From contig JALWHQ010000435.1 of NCBI GenBank assembly GCA_026983525.1, forward strand, positions 1 to 34,842: DNA of 34,842 nt, written 5' to 3'. The stretch is from Anaerolineae bacterium (GTDB lineage Bacteria > Chloroflexota > Anaerolineae > JAADDB01). The translations under genes and the position numbers were made by a program. Below are positions 3,376 to 18,028 of the stretch, in pieces. The notes beneath the pieces were generated by a model. The model was given only the letters and a program-made list of their open reading frames with translations, searched no databases and was not told the DNA's origin. Numbering within the stretch: the first letter of the stretch is position 1; the number at the start of each line of letters is the position of its first letter.

Positions 3376-4740
3376 CTATACTTGGGGAAGGTGCCGTAAG
3401 GCTTCTTTGATCTGTTCTTCTGGGTATTCGTAATCCTCCAATTCGCCCCGTAGATATGCATCGTACGCGGCCAGATCAAAGTGGCCGTGCCCCGAAAGGT
3501 TGAAGGCGATGACGACTTTCTCTCCACGCTCTTTGGCAATGAGGGCCTGTTCCATAGCAACACGTACCGCGTGCGCGCTTTCTGGCGCGGGTACGATTCC
3601 TTCGTGGCGCGCGAAGTGCACGGCCGCTTCGAATATGGCATTTTGATGAACGGCTTGGGCTTCGATCAGTCCCTTGTCGTAAAGTGCGCACACTTGCGCG
3701 GCCATGCCGTGATACCGCAGACCGCCCGCGTGGATAGGGGGCGGCATGAAGGTGTGCCCGAGTGTGTACATCTTGATGAGGGGCGTCATCTGGGCGGTAT
3801 CACCGAAGTCATACGCATATAGCCCTTTGGTGAGTGTGGGGGCTGCCGTGGGCTCTACCGCGATTATCCGGTATTGTTTGCCCTCGCGAATCTTATCCCG
3901 AATGAAGGGGAACGTGAATCCGGCAAAGTTGCTTCCTCCCCCAATGGCTCCGATCAAAATGTCGGGTTCTTCGCCGGCCAGTTCGAACTGCTTTTGTGCC
4001 TCTAATCCGATAATGGTTTGGTGCATGAGCACGTGGTTGAGCACAGAACCCAACGAGTAGCGGGTGTCGTCATGGGTCGCGGCGTCCTCTACAGCTTCGG
4101 AAATGGCGATGCCCAGGCTGCCAGGGCTGTCAGGATCTTTGGCCAGAATGCGTCGGCCTGCTTCCGTGTCGGGGCTTGGACTGGGCACGACCTGGGCGCC
4201 GTAGGTTTCCATGAGAATGCGGCGATAGGGCTTTTGCTGGTAACTGACCTTTACCATGTAAACTTTGAGGTCGATGCCGAAGACACTACAGGCAAATGCC
4301 AGTGCGCTCCCCCATTGACCGGCACCGGTTTCCGTGGTCAAGCGGCGAACACCTTCCTGGGCATTGTAGAAGGCTTGGGCTACGGCAGTGTTGGGCTTGT
4401 GGCTTCCAGAGGGACTTACGCCCTCGTACTTGAAGTAGATGTGGGCGGGGGTGTCCAGGGCTTTTTCCCAACGTCGAGCGCGAATTAGCGGGGTAGGGCG
4501 CCACATGCGGTACACGTCCAGCACGGGCTCGGGAATATCAATGTACCGCTCGGTACTCACTTCTTGCATGATCAGCGCCATAGGAAAGAGTGGGGCCAAG
4601 TCATCCGGCCCGATGGGTTGGCCGGTCCCCGGATGCAGGACGGGCGGCATCTCAATGCCTGCCGCGGGGAGGTCGGCAGCAATGTTGTACCATTGTTTGG
4701 GGAGATCCTTCTCGCTGAGAATGTACTTTTTGCTTTCCAT
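3376..4740 (-). CDS. trpB2: TrpB2-type tryptophan synthase beta-like PLP enzyme (stand-alone, no trpA nearby)
   Basis: N-terminus [28 protein letters not shown]-lysine motif [11 protein letters not shown], then [13 protein letters not shown] and [11 protein letters not shown]. Length about 454 aa fits TrpB2. Start moved from 4821 to the ATG at 4740 because AAGGAGG (4749-4755) lies 8 nt upstream of it. Confidence 0.9.
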
Positions 4741-4873
4741 GGTCATGACCTCCTTAAATGAGTTTGAGCAACTGCCGGTCGAGATGCGCGTGTACACGCG
4801 GGAAGAAAGGGACAATGACAAAGCAGAGGGTTGAAGAATTCAACCTAACGGAAGAGACTTATGGGTGGGGTAA

Positions 4874-4966
4874 TTACATCGCGCGCGGCCGGGCCAAGCC
4901 CGGCCACCAGGACCAGGAACGAAGGAGGACAACGAACGGGGCTACGAAAGTGCCCAAGAACGGCAT
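4874..4966 (-). CDS. Candidate Trp-rich leader peptide (30 aa) upstream of trpB2
   Basis: Hand translation: MPFLGTFVAPFVVLLRSWSWWPGLARPRAM*. Trp codons at 4913-4915, 4907-4909 and 4904-4906. GGAGCAGGAGCA lies upstream of the ATG. The ORF lies downstream of the predicted promoter at 5000-5028 and 134 nt upstream of the trpB2 start. Confidence 0.5.
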   Translation of the reverse strand: MPFLGTFVAPFVVLLRSWSWWPGLARPRAM

Positions 4967-4999
4967 ACGTGTACGTGCTCCTGCTCCAAGGATTGTGCT

Positions 5000-5028
5000 A
5001 TTATACGGTGCTCCTGGTGTCGAGGCAA
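5000..5028 (-). promoter_or_regulatory. Putative promoter of the trpB2 leader transcript
   Basis: On the - strand: TTGCCT (5023-5028), 17-nt spacer, consensus TATAAT (5000-5005). Confidence 0.5.
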
Positions 5029-5043
5029 ATTTCGCCTTGAAGG

Positions 5044-6018
5044 TTGAAATGCGCACCTGCTCGGAGGATGGACGTGACCACACAGCGTGAACGTAAAGCA
5101 CCTCAATCAATATATACGGCACGTTTTCCCGTGGACTTGCAAGTGCACACGACTTGTTCGGATGGCACGCTGCGACCCGATCAGGTAGTGGCACTGGCTA
5201 AAGAGGTTGGGGTATCGGTTCTGGCCATTACCGACCACGATTCGGTGGACGGGGTGGATGTGGCAGTGGAAGTGGGGCGTTCGCTGGGGGTCACGGTCAT
5301 TCCGGCTGTGGAAATTAGTCTCCGACACGAACCGGAACGAGACTTTTTCGACATGGATCTCCTGGGATACTGGATCGATGTCCATCATCCCCTTCTGGTT
5401 GACACACTGCGGCAGGCGCGAGAAGGGCGCATCCTGCAGAAGAAGTTGCAAGTGGAACGTCTGGCCTCCCTTGGGTACGATATCACGTGGGAGGACGTGG
5501 CCGCGCGCGCTCGCGGCGTACCCGGCCGCCCCCACATAGCCGAAGTGCTTGTGGAACGTCACCCGGACGAGTTCCCCTCCATTGACGCGGTGTTCGAGTC
5601 CGTGCTCAGCATCCACAGCCCACACTACGTGCCTCGGCCCAGCGCGCCCTCCCTTGAGGAAGCGGTGAGGCTGGTGCGGGCCGCGGGCGGGCTTCCCGTC
5701 CTCGCGCACCCCGGGTTGTACACCGACGCGCGCGATATAGACGACGTTATCGCACGCGCGGCTCAGGCCGGCGTGATGGGCCTGGAAGTGTGGTACCCCT
5801 ACCACAAGACGAGCGTGTGCCCTGGCTGTTCGGAGGCCGAGTTGCAGCGCATGTTCGATTATTTCGAGGCCCTGGCCGACAGGCTTGGGCTTGCCAAGAC
5901 CGGCGGAAGCGATTACCACGGAGAACGTAAGGACATACAGTTAGGGGAGCAGGGATTGACATGGGAGCGTTTTAAGGCATTGCAGGCGTACGTTTCAGAG
6001 TTTCACCATAGATCATAA
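5044..6018 (+). CDS. PHP-domain metal-dependent phosphoesterase, TrpH/YciV-like
   Basis: FPVDLQVHTTCSDGTLRP, LAITDHDSVDG, VIPAVEIS, LPVLAHPGLY and GGSDYHG match the PHP motif set, and the overall layout matches E. coli TrpH/YciV as I recall it. Start is uncertain (5044 or the ATG at 5068). Confidence 0.85.
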   Translation: MKCAPARRMDVTTQRERKAPQSIYTARFPVDLQVHTTCSDGTLRPDQVVALAKEVGVSVLAITDHDSVDGVDVAVEVGRSLGVTVIPAVEISLRHEPERDFFDMDLLGYWIDVHHPLLVDTLRQAREGRILQKKLQVERLASLGYDITWEDVAARARGVPGRPHIAEVLVERHPDEFPSIDAVFESVLSIHSPHYVPRPSAPSLEEAVRLVRAAGGLPVLAHPGLYTDARDIDDVIARAAQAGVMGLEVWYPYHKTSVCPGCSEAELQRMFDYFEALADRLGLAKTGGSDYHGERKDIQLGEQGLTWERFKALQAYVSEFHHRS

Positions 6019-6175: not shown

Positions 6176-7678
6176 ATGAAACGTTGGTTACTTCTCGTCA
6201 CAGTCTTGCTTCTTGCTTCCTTGGTTTTGGCAGCATGTCCTCAGCCCACGCCTCAAGTAGTTAAGGAAACGGTCGTGGTGACCAAAGAGGTCGAGAAGGT
6301 GGTGACCAAGGAAGTCGAGAAGGTGGTCACCAAAGAGGTAGAGAAGGTTGTCACGAAAGTTGTTGAGGTCGAAAAGAAGCCTGAACTTCAGGTCATCAAG
6401 TTGACAGCGTGGACCATCGGCCCTGATGAGCCGTCCTTCTATCGACGCGACAACCTCATAGAGGCGGCCAAGCGTCTGAACAAAGATCTGGAGGCCCTTG
6501 GCTCCAACGTGCGGGTGGAACTCGAGGCCACCTTCGACACGGGCGATTGGGGAGACTACAAACAGAAGTTCATCCTGGCCGCACAGGCGGGCAACGCCCC
6601 TGACATTATCCTCAGTGGTCACGAGGATGTCGCGCCCTGGGGCGATGCCGGCTACATCATCCCGCTGACGGATTACATCCAGCAGTACTGGGAGGAGACC
6701 TATCAGGACATCATCCCCGCGCTGTGGAAGTCCGTGGAGTACAAGGGTGAGCGCTGGGCAGTACCGCAGGATACTGAGGCCCGCCCTATGTACTTCAGCA
6801 AGAAACTGCTGCGAGACTGGGGTTGGAGCGAGGATCAGATCAACGCGCTGCCCCAACAGGTACGCGCGGGTGAGTTCACCCTGTACGACATGCTCGAACT
6901 GGCCAAGAAGGCTCAGGACGAGGGTGTGGTAGAGGAGGGCTATGGTTACTGGACGCGCCCCAAGAAGGGTGGTGACTTCTACCACATCTACTTCGCGTTT
7001 GGCGGTGAGATGCAGGATCCCGAGACGGGCAAACTGGTCGTGGTGAAGGACGCGCTGCGCAAGTGGCTCCAGTTCCACTACGACACGGTCTTCACCTACA
7101 AGACCACGCCCGAGGGCTTCATCGGCACCGACTGGAAGATCTGGCACGAGACCGTGAGCAAGGCGGACAAGGTCCTCTTCTGGAACGGTGGTACGTGGCA
7201 CTGGGCGGAGTGGACGCAGAAGTACCTGGATGGCAACGAGGACTACCTGTGGGAGAACGTAGGCTTCATGCTTATCCCCGCGGGTGAGCCTGGCTTGAGC
7301 CCGACCACCTTGTCCCACCCGCTGGTCTACATGGTCTCCAGCAACTCCAAGAACCCGGACCTGGCCTTCCGCATCATCACCCTGGCGACCACTGCGGACC
7401 TGAACAGCCGTCACGCGGTGAACTCCGGCCACCTGGCCATCCTGCAGTCTCAGTTCAACCATCCGGCCTACAAGGCCAACAAGTTCCTGCAGGAAGCGGC
7501 CTACATGGTCGAGTACACCAACTTCCAGCCCAACAGCCCGGACTACGGAGAGTATGACCGCATCCTGTGGACCGCGCTGTCGGCTGTGATGGCCGGAGAC
7601 ATGAGTGTGGACGACGCGGTGGCTTTTGTTGAGGACGAGATGCAGAATTCCTTGGGTGACAAGGTTATCTTCAAGTAA
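6176..7678 (+). CDS. ABC transporter extracellular solute-binding lipoprotein (family 1, carbohydrate type) with a repeated linker
   Basis: Signal peptide with lipobox LVLAAC. Linker (VVTKEVEK)x3 plus a degenerate copy. The remaining ~420 aa has sugar-SBP character (W/Y-rich, PDIILSG, FWNGGTW). GGAGGAGGAGG SD. Confidence 0.85.
   Translation: MKRWLLLVTVLLLASLVLAACPQPTPQVVKETVVVTKEVEKVVTKEVEKVVTKEVEKVVTKVVEVEKKPELQVIKLTAWTIGPDEPSFYRRDNLIEAAKRLNKDLEALGSNVRVELEATFDTGDWGDYKQKFILAAQAGNAPDIILSGHEDVAPWGDAGYIIPLTDYIQQYWEETYQDIIPALWKSVEYKGERWAVPQDTEARPMYFSKKLLRDWGWSEDQINALPQQVRAGEFTLYDMLELAKKAQDEGVVEEGYGYWTRPKKGGDFYHIYFAFGGEMQDPETGKLVVVKDALRKWLQFHYDTVFTYKTTPEGFIGTDWKIWHETVSKADKVLFWNGGTWHWAEWTQKYLDGNEDYLWENVGFMLIPAGEPGLSPTTLSHPLVYMVSSNSKNPDLAFRIITLATTADLNSRHAVNSGHLAILQSQFNHPAYKANKFLQEAAYMVEYTNFQPNSPDYGEYDRILWTALSAVMAGDMSVDDAVAFVEDEMQNSLGDKVIFK
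6275..6346 (+). repeat. Three tandem 24-nt repeats inside the SBP gene encoding VVTKEVEK
   Basis: Units at 6275-6298, 6299-6322 and 6323-6346, with a degenerate fourth unit to about 6370. The units differ only at synonymous positions (AAAGAG/AAGGAA, GTCGAG/GTAGAG). Confidence 0.9.
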
Positions 7679-15029: not shown

Positions 15030-15065
15030 TGTTATAGTTGTGGGCACATCGGTGCACACGTGCAC
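15030..15065 (+). promoter_or_regulatory. Candidate extended -10 promoter (TGtTATAGT) and palindrome GTGCACACGTGCAC upstream of larE
   Basis: TG-t-TATAGT at 15030-15038. GTGCAC-ac-GTGCAC at 15052-15065, 14 nt before the larE ATG. It shares TGCACACGTG with the operator at 1424-1439. Confidence 0.3.
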
Positions 15066-15078
15066 AGTGGGAGGAGAT

Positions 15079-15972
15079 ATGCGCGAGACGAAAACACGGG
15101 TGGCTTTTGTGGAAATGCCAATCCGTGAGCACACGTTTTCTCCAGCCAATTTGGAGGAGAAGCTTGCTCAAATAGAGGCGCTCATTGCCCCTCTAAGGCG
15201 GGTAATCGTGGCCTATTCGGGAGGGGTGGATAGTAGCCTGGTTCTGGCGGTCGCCCACCGGGTTCTCGGTGACGGTGCCCTGGGTGTGATAGCCGACTCT
15301 CCCTCTGTGCCCCGCTCCGAGTTGCGAGAGGCTCTGGAGGTGGCCGCGTCCATAGGCGCGCGTGTACGCGTCATTCCAACGAACGAACTCGACGATCCCA
15401 ACTACGCGGCCAACCCTGTCAACCGGTGTTACTTCTGCAAGTCCCACTTGCATCACGCCCTGTGGGACATTGCCCGAACCGAGGGCTATCGCGCCATCCT
15501 CGACGGCACCAACGCGGATGATGTCGGTGACTTTCGCCCGGGGCAGGAGGCGGCCCGCGAGCGGGGGGTGGTGAGCCCGCTGCGCGAGGCGGGCATTACC
15601 AAAGCCGAGGTGCGGGCCCTGGCCCGCATGTTGGGCCTGCCCAATTGGGATAAGCCCGCGGCAGCGTGCCTGAGTTCGCGCGTCCCTTACGGCACGCCGG
15701 TCACTCGTGACGTGCTGAAACGCATCGAGCGCGCGGAGGAGGGGCTGCGGAATTTGGGCTTCCGCCAGGTGCGAGTGCGTCATCACGGCCCGGTTGCGCG
15801 CATTGAAGTGCCGACGGAAGACCTGGAGCGGTTGCTACACTTGCGGGACGAGGTCATCCGCGGGGTGAAGGCCGCGGGGTACACGTACGTCACCCTGGAC
15901 CTGCAGGGGTTCCGCAGCGGCAGCAGCAACGAAGTCCTGGCCCAGAAGGAGAAGCAGAATATCGCCCGATGA
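15079..15972 (+). CDS. larE: LarE, ATP-dependent sulfur transferase for nickel-pincer (NPN) cofactor synthesis
   Basis: PP-loop VAYSGGVDSS, ACLSSRVPYG (position of the L. plantarum sacrificial Cys), and additionally NRCYFCK. Start set at the ATG at 15079 after GGAGGAG; the track start is 15040. Confidence 0.88.
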   Translation: MRETKTRVAFVEMPIREHTFSPANLEEKLAQIEALIAPLRRVIVAYSGGVDSSLVLAVAHRVLGDGALGVIADSPSVPRSELREALEVAASIGARVRVIPTNELDDPNYAANPVNRCYFCKSHLHHALWDIARTEGYRAILDGTNADDVGDFRPGQEAARERGVVSPLREAGITKAEVRALARMLGLPNWDKPAAACLSSRVPYGTPVTRDVLKRIERAEEGLRNLGFRQVRVRHHGPVARIEVPTEDLERLLHLRDEVIRGVKAAGYTYVTLDLQGFRSGSSNEVLAQKEKQNIAR

Positions 15973-16649
15973 GCGAACGTTACAACGAGGAATTGTTCCC
16001 GGATCACGACCGCCTGGCGCGGCAGGGGTTTCCGGAGTTTGTTTTTGGGGAAGGGAAAACGCCGCAGCAGGTTGTTGCGGCAATACGGGCGTTGTTAGAA
16101 CGACAGGGGGGCGTTCTGGCGACGCGCGTCTCTCGCGAAGCCGCATCCCTGGCGCGAGCGCAGTTGCCCGGGGTTGAGTACCATGAGCAGGCGCGTGTAT
16201 TGCGCGTAGGCATGTTGCTATCCCCAACTACGATCCCATCCCTTCACATCACTATAACCACCGCCGGTACATCCGACACCGCCGTAGCCGAGGAAGCAGC
16301 GCTGGTAAGTGAATTCCTCGGTCATCGTGTCAGCCGCGTGTACGACGTGGGGGTCGCGGGGTTGCATCGCTTGATGGCTCACCAGGAGGAATTAGCCGAG
16401 GCGGACGCGCTCATCGTTGTCGCGGGTATGGAGGGCGCGCTCCCCTCGGTGGTGGGGGGATTGGTCGGCATTCCGGTGGTGGCAGTTCCCACCAGTGTGG
16501 GCTATGGCGCGCACTTCGGCGGCCTGGCTCCCCTCCTCGCCATGCTCAACAGTTGCGCGTCCGGCGTGGTGGTGGTCAATATCGACAACGGCTTCGGCGC
16601 GGCTTTGGCCGTGCACCGAATGGCCCAGATGCTGCGGAGGCATACATGA
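15969..16649 (+). CDS. larB: LarB, NaAD carboxylase/hydrolase for NPN cofactor synthesis (PurE-like)
   Basis: PurE-like core TTAGTSDTAVAEEA...VVAGMEGALPSVVGGLVGIPVVAVPTSVGYG. ATGA overlap with larE. Confidence 0.88.
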   Translation: MSERYNEELFPDHDRLARQGFPEFVFGEGKTPQQVVAAIRALLERQGGVLATRVSREAASLARAQLPGVEYHEQARVLRVGMLLSPTTIPSLHITITTAGTSDTAVAEEAALVSEFLGHRVSRVYDVGVAGLHRLMAHQEELAEADALIVVAGMEGALPSVVGGLVGIPVVAVPTSVGYGAHFGGLAPLLAMLNSCASGVVVVNIDNGFGAALAVHRMAQMLRRHT

Positions 16650-18028
16650 GCAGGATCGCCTATTTCGACGTTTTTGTGGGGGCAAGCGGGGATATGATCC
16701 TCGGGGCGTTGGTGGATGCCGGCCTTCCCCTACACGTTTTACAAGAAACGGTTGAAGCGCTGGGTCTGGGGAATGCTGTGAGTGTCCAGGCCGAGCGGGT
16801 GCACAAAGGAGCCATTGCAGGGACGAAGGTGACCGTCGTTACCCAGGGGGAGCCCGACCAACCCCACGCCCACCTTCGCCTTCCGGCTTCATCCCCTGAG
16901 GAACACGAGCATTCCCATCGCCACGACCACGCCCCCGATCATGACCACGAGCATCACCATGCCCACACTCACGACCACAGTCACGGTCACGAGCAGCACG
17001 AACATCGCGCCCTGAACGAGATTGTCACCCTGATCAAGGAGGCGGATTTGCCCGACCGGGTGAAGGAGCGGGCCATTGCTGTTTTCCGCCGCTTGGCCGA
17101 GGCCGAGGCGCGTGTACACGGCATCCCCGTTGACGAGATCCACTTTCACGAGGTGGGCGCGCTGGACGCGGTGGTGGACATCGTGGGGTGCGTCATGGGG
17201 CTGCACGCGCTGGGCGTGGAGCGCGTGGTTGCCTCCCCCATCCCCCTGACGCGGGGATACGTGGAGACGGCCCACGGCCGCTTGCCGGTCCCTGCACCGG
17301 CGACGATGATGTTACTGGAGGGCGTGCCCGTGCGCGGGTTGGACTTGGAGGCGGAGACGGTGACCCCTACGGGGGCCGCGCTGCTCACGACCCTGGCCGA
17401 TGCGTTTGGCCCTGTGCCCCCAATGAGGGTGGAACGGGTGGGACATGGTGCCGGAACGATGGACCTTCCCTTGCCCAACATGCTGCGCGTGTTGCTCGGT
17501 GCCCCCGTGTCTGCGCAGGATGAAGGCCCTCATGCCCACGCGGTGGTGTTGCTTTCCACCAACGTGGACGACATGCCGGGAGAATGGTTCGGGCCCCTGT
17601 TCGACGAACTGCTCTCTGCCGGGGCTCTGGACGTTTGGTTCACGCCCGTGCAGATGAAGAAAGGGCGCCCGGGTGTCGTCATCTCTGCCCTCACCTCACC
17701 CGACCGGGCAGGGGCTGTGCGGGATCTCCTGCTGCTGCGAACGACGACTCTGGGGGTGCGCGAGGAACTCCTCACGCGGTGGTGCCTCCCGCGCGAGGAA
17801 CAGGTCGTGAACACCCGGTGGGGGCAGGTGTGCGTGAAGGTAGCCCGCCTTCCCAACGGCACCATGCGCGTCAAGCCCGAATTCGACGATTGTCAGGCGC
17901 TGGCTCGCGAGCACGGCGTCAATGTGTGGGACGTGTACTACGAGGCTGTAGCCCGCTGGCGAGAGGTAGGGAATATGGAAGAGAGGGAGCCAGATAGGAG
18001 TGAAGATTCTGTAAGCCACAACATGTAG
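16646..18028 (+). CDS. larC: LarC, nickel insertase (DUF111 family), single unsplit ORF with a His-rich tract
   Basis: MSRIAYFDVFVGASGDMILGAL is a typical LarC start. His-rich tract EEHEHSHRHDHAPDHDHEHHHAHTHDHSHGHEQHEH; IHFHEVGALDAVVDIVG. ATGA overlap with the larB stop, so start is 16646 rather than 16553. Confidence 0.88.
   Translation: MSRIAYFDVFVGASGDMILGALVDAGLPLHVLQETVEALGLGNAVSVQAERVHKGAIAGTKVTVVTQGEPDQPHAHLRLPASSPEEHEHSHRHDHAPDHDHEHHHAHTHDHSHGHEQHEHRALNEIVTLIKEADLPDRVKERAIAVFRRLAEAEARVHGIPVDEIHFHEVGALDAVVDIVGCVMGLHALGVERVVASPIPLTRGYVETAHGRLPVPAPATMMLLEGVPVRGLDLEAETVTPTGAALLTTLADAFGPVPPMRVERVGHGAGTMDLPLPNMLRVLLGAPVSAQDEGPHAHAVVLLSTNVDDMPGEWFGPLFDELLSAGALDVWFTPVQMKKGRPGVVISALTSPDRAGAVRDLLLLRTTTLGVREELLTRWCLPREEQVVNTRWGQVCVKVARLPNGTMRVKPEFDDCQALAREHGVNVWDVYYEAVARWREVGNMEEREPDRSEDSVSHNM

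Follow-up and report, generated by a model that had tools for sequence, protein, structure and literature searches.

A putative tryptophan-codon leader 5' of a stand-alone trpB2 gene in Anaerolineae

In a 34,842 nucleotide (nt) stretch of DNA from an Anaerolineae bacterium (contig JALWHQ010000435.1), the whole of which is referred to here as the window, the region 4741-5028 lies 5' of a stand-alone trpB2 gene and appears to be a tryptophan-codon leader in which charged tRNA-Trp would be sensed by ribosomes stalling before a conserved hairpin, a reading that is given a probability of about 0.85. The anatomy of this leader and its conservation are directly observed: the leader open reading frame (ORF), in homologous form, is shared by 11 of the 12 distinct lineages of uncultured Anaerolineae that have a TrpB2 at least 87% identical to that of the window (17 proteins), traced to their contigs. 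Sensing at the UGG codons, with trpB2 on under starvation, is suggested by what is established for leader-peptide attenuation, which is textbook knowledge in the proteobacteria and actinobacteria. The main output would be premature Rho-dependent termination in the C-rich spacer between leader and gene; this is put forward tentatively, at somewhat less than even odds, the evidence for it being compositional.

Anatomy of the leader

The trpB2 gene is separated by 328 nt from a divergent PHP-family phosphatase gene, which starts at about 5044/5068 on the + strand. Window coordinates were checked base by base on the - strand, and all features reported are on that strand unless stated. SD denotes a Shine-Dalgarno sequence.

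5000-5028, - strand: sigma-70-type promoter TTGCCT-N17-TATAAT, 10 of 12 consensus matches
4978-4987, - strand: SD-like purine-rich tract GGAGCAGGAG of the leader ORF
4874-4966, - strand: leader ORF, 30 codons and a stop, product MPFLGTFVAPFVVLLRSWSWWPGLARPRAM; ATG 4966-4964, TAA 4876-4874
4922-4928, - strand: candidate anti-SD CCUCCUU, exact complement of the trpB2 SD
4904-4915, - strand: Trp codons UGG-UCC-UGG-UGG; UGG at 4915-4913, 4909-4907, and 4906-4904
4887-4905, - strand: all-GC hairpin of 8 base pairs (bp), GGCCGGGC-uug-GCCCGGCC; arms 4905-4898 and 4894-4887
4874-4886, - strand: leader tail G-CGC-GCG-AUG-UAA, 10 nt from hairpin to stop codon
4794-4873, - strand: C-rich, G-poor tract directly 3' of the leader stop, 27 C and 11 G in 80 nt
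4829-4845, - strand: weak hairpin GGUUGAA-uuc-UUCAACC, 7 pairs of which 3 are GC, tail CTCTGCTTTG (RNA: CUCUGCUUUG)
4787-4800, - strand: second GC hairpin CGCGUGUACACGCG, in the distal spacer
4749-4755, - strand: trpB2 SD AAGGAGG, 8 nt before the ATG at 4740
3376-4740, - strand: stand-alone trpB2, a TrpB-like pyridoxal phosphate enzyme of 454 amino acids, from profile scores

The promoter, leader ORF, UGG codons, and hairpin had been placed by the initial annotation, made from the sequence of the window, and are accurate in every coordinate; the perfect complement that it reported between CCUCCUU and the SD of trpB2 is likewise confirmed in the window. The weak hairpin that it put at about 4828-4844 is present, at 4845-4829, but is not conserved in the relatives. 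It had recognized no convincing GC-rich terminator, and indeed none is conserved: neither the leader of the window nor that of any relative has a U tract after a GC stem.

The promoter is the sole promoter-like site in 4500-5300 (1 against 0.3 expected), and a transcript start near 4993 is predicted. The spacing between the leader SD and its ATG, 11 nt, is rather long. Tryptophan is encoded at leader codons 18, 20, and 21. The all-GC hairpin, which codes for (W)PGxARP, takes the GG of the third UGG as its own first two bases. All folding predictions made here are of equilibrium structures. The hairpin has a predicted free energy of -17.0 kcal/mol for its 8 bp, or -22.5 kcal/mol with two further pairs, and it is still present in folds at 65°C. 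Allowing up to 2 mismatches, 0.14 occurrences of its pattern would be expected in the window, and one is found on each strand. The fold of the whole leader (4730-4993) has a z-score of -0.68, which is not unusual.

Three tryptophans in four codons occur in 6 clusters across the six frames of the window, against 2.1 expected. Judged from the window alone, the cluster of Trp codons would not be beyond chance; the significance of the ORF comes from its conservation in the relatives and not from the rarity of such clusters.

The spacer also contains a 29-codon TTG-initiated ORF (4754-4843), the terminal TAA of which abuts the SD of trpB2. This ORF is without an SD of its own, its conservation was not seen among the relatives, and it is probably a chance product of stop-poor, C-rich sequence.

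Conservation of the leader and tryptophan leaders elsewhere

The 11 lineages with the leader are those of the window, L161, L163, L164, L166, L167, L169, L171, L173, L001, and L175, which bears out the suggestion in the initial annotation that a conserved short ORF with clustered TGG be sought 5' of trpB2 orthologues. In the twelfth lineage, L002, the leader ORF has been lost. The C-terminal parts of the leader peptides, each ending at the stop codon, are as follows.

Window: ...LLRSWSWWPGLARPRAM
L161: ...CSWLWTWWPGLARPRAL
L163: ...LVWSWIWWPGPARPRLV
L164: ...LPWSWIWWPGFARPRLV
L166: ...CWRRFWWWPGAARPCLA
L167: ...LFWSWTWPGPARPRTK
L169: ...LRWWSWFWPGPARPRV
L171: ...LFWTWTWPGLARPRAR
L173: ...LFWSWTWPGPARPRVK
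L001: ...LYWTWTWPGLARPRVR
L175: ...LYWTWTWPGPARPRVR

On two of the contigs (L171 and L175) the leader ORF had already been annotated by gene callers, as a 31-codon gene. All 11 lineages have three or four UGG codons, mostly arranged as W-x-W-x-W. The N-terminal 17 codons are unrelated between lineages, and the first UGG is codon 18 in 9 of the 11, taking the second ATG for L173; a fixed length of 17 codons would just accommodate a stalled ribosome and one queued behind it. This 17-codon stretch (4916-4966 in the window) has more C than G in 10 of the 11 lineages.

The sequence that follows, TGG CCG GGC nnn GCC CGG CCG CGC, is fixed in the codon table of the 11 lineages, synonymous sites included, with two exceptions: one GGC to GGT change, where a G.U pair is retained, and one TGC in place of the CGC that is present in the other 10. 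The loop codon of the hairpin, on the other hand, has six variants. The stop codon comes 2 codons after this position in all lineages but L169, where it comes after 1, and the register of the hairpin relative to the UGG codons is fixed. That the core is fixed at synonymous sites while its loop codon varies would suggest that the constraint is on the RNA and its register with the UGG codons and the stop; from these sequences it would not be on a functional small protein.

The other parts of the leader can also be recognized in the relatives. The promoter arrangement TTGCnn-N17-TATAAT is legible upstream, GGAG/GAAGG-like tracts are present 4-13 nt before the leader ATG, and the SD of trpB2 is GGAGG or GGAGA in all. 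The spacer between the leader stop and trpB2 is 128-203 nt, C-rich, and G-poor.

The DNA sequencing runs containing the region are hydrothermal-vent metagenomes, and in diverged strains from such metagenomes 4882-4918 is the only intergenic island that still aligns. Should growth of this vent-sample organism be hot, it may be that only all-GC helices are stable.

The core of the element was also modelled by covariance (A1, R1), R1 scoring 69.7 bits on the window. With the exact hairpin pattern and the covariance model, no further copies were found elsewhere in the window or in 829 kb covering about 150 other trpB2 loci, and on this sequence evidence the element is confined to one clade of Anaerolineae. 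A 500-nt contig from a vent metagenome (run X8) has the UGG codons, hairpin, and tail (window 4873-4915) with 8 differences in 43 nt and with unrelated flanks; it may represent a more distant lineage, or a second copy before another gene.

Two smaller sequence features were seen around the leader ORF. The C-rich tract opens with a semi-conserved UUnCCCCACC, part of a post-stop motif UA(A/G)UUyCCCCACC(A) (window 4858-4873), with CCCACC or CCACCC in 6 of the 11 lineages. Between the promoter and the leader ORF, one sub-clade has a conserved 5'-terminal stem-loop with the loop motif CTCCTACGRYAG (L002:2859-2894, L001:2676-2711, L175:1178-1213, L171:1178-1213, and L166:1137-1172), which is absent from the window. 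It is kept in L002 despite the loss of the leader ORF there, and its loop holds an anti-SD-like CUCCU.

Tryptophan leaders are also present before trpB2 in other phyla. When 148 trpB2 loci were scanned on both strands for ORFs of at most 50 codons with at least 3 W in 6 codons, there were 5 forward matches and no reverse matches. Two of the forward matches, in L012 and L030, lie outside the present clade and are described below. Matches at L077 and L141 appear to lie inside coding sequence and were rejected as leader ORFs. Apparent WW leaders in Caldilineaceae (L004, L006, and L011) were also rejected, being a thioredoxin gene read out of frame.

The TrpB2 proteins of L012 and L030 are 69-71% identical to that of the window. 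In the case of L012, a Gemmatimonadota metagenome-assembled genome (MAG), the leader MNPLRTHIRRWWWRSRQSSGRSVEFSAV (RRWWWRS) precedes trpB2 within 2830-2944, with a terminator at 2919-2944 consisting of an 11-bp GC stem, GCCCGCTGCAG-cgat-CTGCAGCGGGC, followed by TTTTTGTTTT. The sequence AGCAGTGGG within the leader can pair with the 5' arm of the terminator, and the composition of the spacer is neutral (C over G skew of 0.07). By its sequence this is a classical attenuator. In the case of L030 (bacterial MAG X2_MetaBAT.32, 1500-1720), the leader MSGKEISYNYDSNWCWWNNYITRDLSTPLIR (NWCWWNN) is about 300 nt upstream of trpB2 and is followed by two hairpins with T tracts, read by eye because their loops are beyond the limit of the scanner; it is probably a second, independent classical attenuator.

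Both resemble the present element in having a Trp-rich leader ORF 5' of a TrpB2-type gene, but they have canonical terminators and no sequence similarity to it. These two, together with the present clade, would mean that TrpB2-type genes have been put under tRNA-Trp sensing more than once, and attenuators before trpB2 elsewhere support both the sign of control proposed here and its link to trpB2.

The output step and alternative explanations

In the mechanism proposed, the short ORF would be translated from the 5' end of the mRNA, with three or four UGG codons directly before the all-GC hairpin. When tRNA-Trp is charged, the ribosome would read through, unwind the hairpin, terminate 10 nt beyond it, and depart, and the hairpin would refold. 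Rho could then load on the untranslated, C-rich 128-203 nt, and transcription would end before trpB2 is reached or translated. When charged tRNA-Trp is scarce, the ribosome would stall on UGG, holding the G-rich 5' arm and the preceding C-CUC and releasing the 3' arm, GCCCGGCCGCGC; a ribosome whose A site holds the last UGG would enclose the 5' arm and leave the 3' arm free. The freed arm would alter the fold of the spacer, and in the window could pair with the CGCG hairpin region at 4787-4800, a possible partner for it and a possible pause site. The polymerase would in this way escape termination and trpB2 would be made.

The evidence for Rho is the composition of the spacer. The 80 nt after the leader stop have 26-33 C and 10-18 G in all 11 lineages, a C over G skew of 0.22-0.50, against -0.02 +/- 0.15 in 149 other trpB2 loci, 7% of which reach 0.22. 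This composition is kept although the sequence of the spacer itself is not conserved. By analogy, composition conserved without sequence would be precisely what a Rho loading site requires, and nothing more, and the tract at 4794-4873 is a candidate for such a site, being rut-like (Rho utilization). A C-rich, G-poor, poorly structured tract adjoining the stop of an upstream open reading frame (uORF) is the signature, in this comparison, of Rho-dependent attenuators such as tnaC and speFL (PMC12360218).

Several observations weigh against Rho as the output. The 5' untranslated region of L002, which has lost the leader ORF, is still mildly C-rich (skew 0.18-0.28), so part of this composition may be a habit of the clade. 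No Rho gene was found in the window, and no RNA run was found that holds the region. The C-rich tract lies beyond the reach of a ribosome on the UGG codons, which means that gating needs a rearrangement of the RNA. The released 3' arm is itself C-rich, and on a simple view stalling would expose more C-rich RNA, not less. Only in L161 (p = 0.00), L169 (0.07), and L171 (0.08) does the 3' arm pair better with the spacer than in shuffled sequences; in the window p = 0.31. Folds made with the last UGG masked do pair the 3' arm with the CGCG hairpin region in the window and in L161, where the analogue of the distal GC hairpin is CACGCG-uca-CGCGCGUG. However, the equilibrium folds at 37 and 65°C gave no alternative structure common to the lineages.

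Taken as a whole, a starvation-sensing leader that uses Rho in place of an intrinsic terminator and an invariant hairpin as its switch would be a hybrid of trpL sensing and tnaC output, a combination that is possible but is held with more doubt than Rho-dependent output as such. In a more unusual version, the W-x-W-x-W-P-G-x-A-R-P-R peptide may itself arrest the ribosome beside the C-rich tract.

Two further ideas were rejected. Frameshifting at hungry codons across the spacer is contradicted by early closure of the +1/-1 frames in a number of the lineages, at -5 in the case of L173, L001, and L175. Pairing of the UGG block with the post-stop CCCACC motif is no better than in shuffled sequences (p 0.22-0.83).

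The initial annotation had supposed that a stalled ribosome covers the anti-SD and so frees the SD of trpB2. This would be purely translational attenuation, in which C-CUC pairs with the SD, a ribosome stalled on UGG releases it, and any effect of Rho is secondary polarity. The 7-nt complement in the window invites this explanation, as does the leucine codon, always CTC and preceded by C, that is kept at the nucleotide level 1-3 codons before the first UGG in 9 of the 11 lineages. The site before the tryptophans is the best or a near-best 12-nt partner of the SD in 4 of the 11 (the window, L163, L164, and L167), and there are precedents for the unmasking of a ribosome-binding site (RBS) by stalled ribosomes in the Cys leaders of M. 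smegmatis (bioRxiv 10.1101/834739) and in toiL (PMC12121999).

The full complement is, however, specific to the window; the relatives keep only C-CUC, with 4-5 nt of pairing that does not track their SD variants, and the spacer has many CU-rich tracts that compete for the SD. The segment under the stalled ribosome ranks no higher than other segments in pairing with the trpB2 initiation region, the fraction of equal-length segments that pair as well being 0.08-0.86. Masking the UGG region leaves the predicted accessibility of the SD unchanged or lower (in the window 0.24 falls to 0.07-0.14), with no consistent rise. Were the organism a thermophile, as the vent-metagenome origin of the DNA runs might suggest, a helix of 4-7 bp across 170-250 nt would be weak. 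The invariant hairpin and the fixed 10 nt to the stop are also left unexplained. Release of the SD as the principal output is considered unlikely.

It is less likely still that the leader works by classical 1:2 / 2:3 / 3:4 attenuation, with the GC hairpin at 4787-4800 (CGCGUGUACACGCG) serving as a terminator without a U tract, for the polymerase alone or with NusA/NusG. The geometry is classical, region 1 being the 5' arm beside the UGG codons and region 2 the 3' arm, which a ribosome at the stop would cover, and the masked folds and better-than-shuffled complementarity described above are what it would predict. A distal hairpin is moreover common to L001 and L175, with what appears, by eye, to be a compensatory change. 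Against this, no U tract follows any of these hairpins, the distal hairpins are non-homologous between sub-clades, the pairing of 3' arm and spacer is not significant in 8 of the 11 lineages, and termination without a U tract in the Chloroflexi has to be presupposed.

A third explanation takes the leader to encode an arrest peptide of the tnaC, speFL, or cruR type, W-x-W-x-W-P-G-x-A-R-P-R-x-x holding the ribosome near the stop with a ligand such as free tryptophan and shielding the Rho site. TnaC has 24 residues, with a tryptophan at position 12 (W12), and the tryptophans here, 9-13 residues from the C-terminus, are in a similar position. The architecture is also tna-like: the uORF is short, its C-terminal residues are conserved at an unvarying distance from the stop, a C-rich tract adjoins it, and the spacer is more than 100 nt (PMC12360218). 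Nevertheless, the invariant synonymous sites of PGxARP, with a free loop codon, would point to a constraint on RNA rather than on peptide. The last two residues vary (AM, VR, AL, LV, LA, TK, AR, VK), and L169 has a single residue there. The TnaC motif W-x3-D-x7-P-stop and the RAPP/RAGP arrest motifs are absent, the C-terminus being WPGxARPRxx with no D or RAPP. Induction by tryptophan of an enzyme that forms it is physiologically implausible, and classical attenuators of the starvation type precede trpB2 elsewhere, all of which makes an arrest peptide improbable.

Hardly any weight can be given to the remaining explanation, in which nothing is translated as a sensor, the ORF and UGG codons are incidental, and the 19-bp palindrome is recognized by a protein, either as the DNA operator of a repressor or as a site on the RNA. 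In its favour, both half-sites are invariant without covariation, as for sequence-specific recognition, and maintenance of the ORF is by itself weak evidence, since 29 codons would be free of stops with a probability of about 0.39 in each lineage. Against it, the palindrome is some 90-105 nt downstream of the predicted start in the window, where an operator would be unusual. Three or four UGG codons are retained in frame with the ATG in every lineage, the first of them at codon 18 in most, and neither the reading frame of the hairpin with respect to UGG nor the place of the stop shifts.

Known leaders and the surrounding genes

The trpL leader of E. coli is the classical trp leader-peptide attenuator. 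What is found here agrees with that type in that a tryptophan biosynthesis gene is preceded by a short ORF whose Trp codons cluster towards its 3' end, and in that the ORF and its Trp codons are conserved amid a varying peptide. In common with trpL and the trp attenuators of Corynebacterium and Streptomyces (PMC1262725), the UGG codons are shortly before the stop of a short 5' ORF, and a GC hairpin has its 5' arm under the UGG-bound ribosome and its 3' arm under the stop-bound ribosome. Indeed, the GGCC-type complementary blocks of the window recall the gGCC-rGCy-GGCC triples of the actinobacteria (PMC1262725).

Unlike those attenuators, the window has neither a terminator of GC stem and U tract nor a match to the Rfam Trp_leader model, and on these two points it falls outside the classical trp attenuators. 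The UGG codons of this clade are mostly alternate, not tandem; the ORF is of about 30 codons with its first UGG at codon 18; the spacer is long, C-rich, and G-poor; and the target is a stand-alone trpB2 and not trpE or an operon. The one match in the literature searched, the 'trpB2A' of C. diphtheriae, is a gene name in PMC1262725 that need not denote a TrpB2-type protein.

Rho-dependent attenuation that depends on a uORF is known from tnaC, speFL, cruR, and mgtL (PMC12360218), and from toiL (PMC12121999). These share with the window element a uORF, an adjoining C-rich untranslated tract, which in the present case is found in 11 of 11 lineages, a long spacer, and the lack of an intrinsic terminator. 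In tnaC, speFL, and cruR a ligand keeps the ribosome at the stop codon, where it shields the rut site (PMC12360218), whereas the sensing codons of the window are 30 nt upstream of the stop, which would give no direct shielding. The signal here would be a shortage of charged tRNA instead of an exit-tunnel ligand, and the use of Rho is a candidate. The input side is thus trpL-like, while the output side resembles the uORF/Rho attenuators without their arrest motifs.

The polycysteine leaders of mycobacteria, the 'Cys ribulon', are similar in that codons for one amino acid are clustered in a short ORF that precedes a biosynthetic gene, a terminator is lacking, and the proposal is again that an RNA duplex is blocked by a stalled ribosome (bioRxiv 10.1101/834739). 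Their ORFs are leaderless and the RBS-sequestering duplex was shown by mutation (bioRxiv 10.1101/834739), whereas a conserved, specific duplex of anti-SD and SD could not be demonstrated for the window element.

Other classes of regulator were not matched. No Rfam family reached its gathering score anywhere in the window, and relaxing the search to E ≤ 10 in 4600-5200 brought up only fragments of SorX, sR60, and RAGATH-36, none of them relevant. Trp_leader was rejected on the lack of any covariance-model match, and a T-box riboswitch for tRNA-Trp on the lack of a match in the window or, with permissive filters, in 4600-5200. A TRAP-binding leader, which would have nine to eleven (G/U)AG triplets at a spacing of 2-3 nt, was also rejected, there being five scattered GAG/TAG triplets and a longest spaced-repeat run of 12 nt.

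The literature searched contains no description of a leader-peptide attenuator in the Chloroflexi or for a TrpB2-type gene, in keeping with the initial annotation, which knew of none for trpB2. The physiological role of TrpB2 is debated, indole salvage being one proposal. A conserved tRNA-Trp sensor before trpB2, together with independent attenuators in two other lineages, would be evidence from regulation that a shortage of tryptophan calls for TrpB2. The element, some 250 nt long and available in eleven natural variants plus a natural deletion in L002, would also be a compact case in which to study how sensing by a uORF is coupled to output without an intrinsic terminator.

The downstream protein is, by its profile scores, TrpB2-type and not canonical TrpB: it scores 744.9 bits on NF009057 (cut-off 366) and 659 bits on TIGR01415 (cut-off 518.85), and 150.9 bits on the canonical trpB model TIGR00263, below the cut-off of 392.45. 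No further trp genes were found among the larger ORFs of the window, which agrees with the stand-alone trpB2 of the initial annotation. Its neighbours encode the PHP phosphatase, an FmdB zinc ribbon protein, HSP20, and a sugar ABC transporter, and more distant genes include tig-clpP-clpX, lepA, and lar-like genes.

The N-terminus of the ABC-transporter substrate-binding protein (6176-6400) has at least 3 copies of a repeated VVTKEVEK after a lipoprotein-like signal sequence. Three adjacent ORFs at 15040-18028 match NAD_synthase-like (LarE-like), AIR carboxylase-like (LarB-like), and Ni_insertion (LarC) families, and look like a nickel-pincer cofactor biosynthesis cluster, unrelated to the leader.

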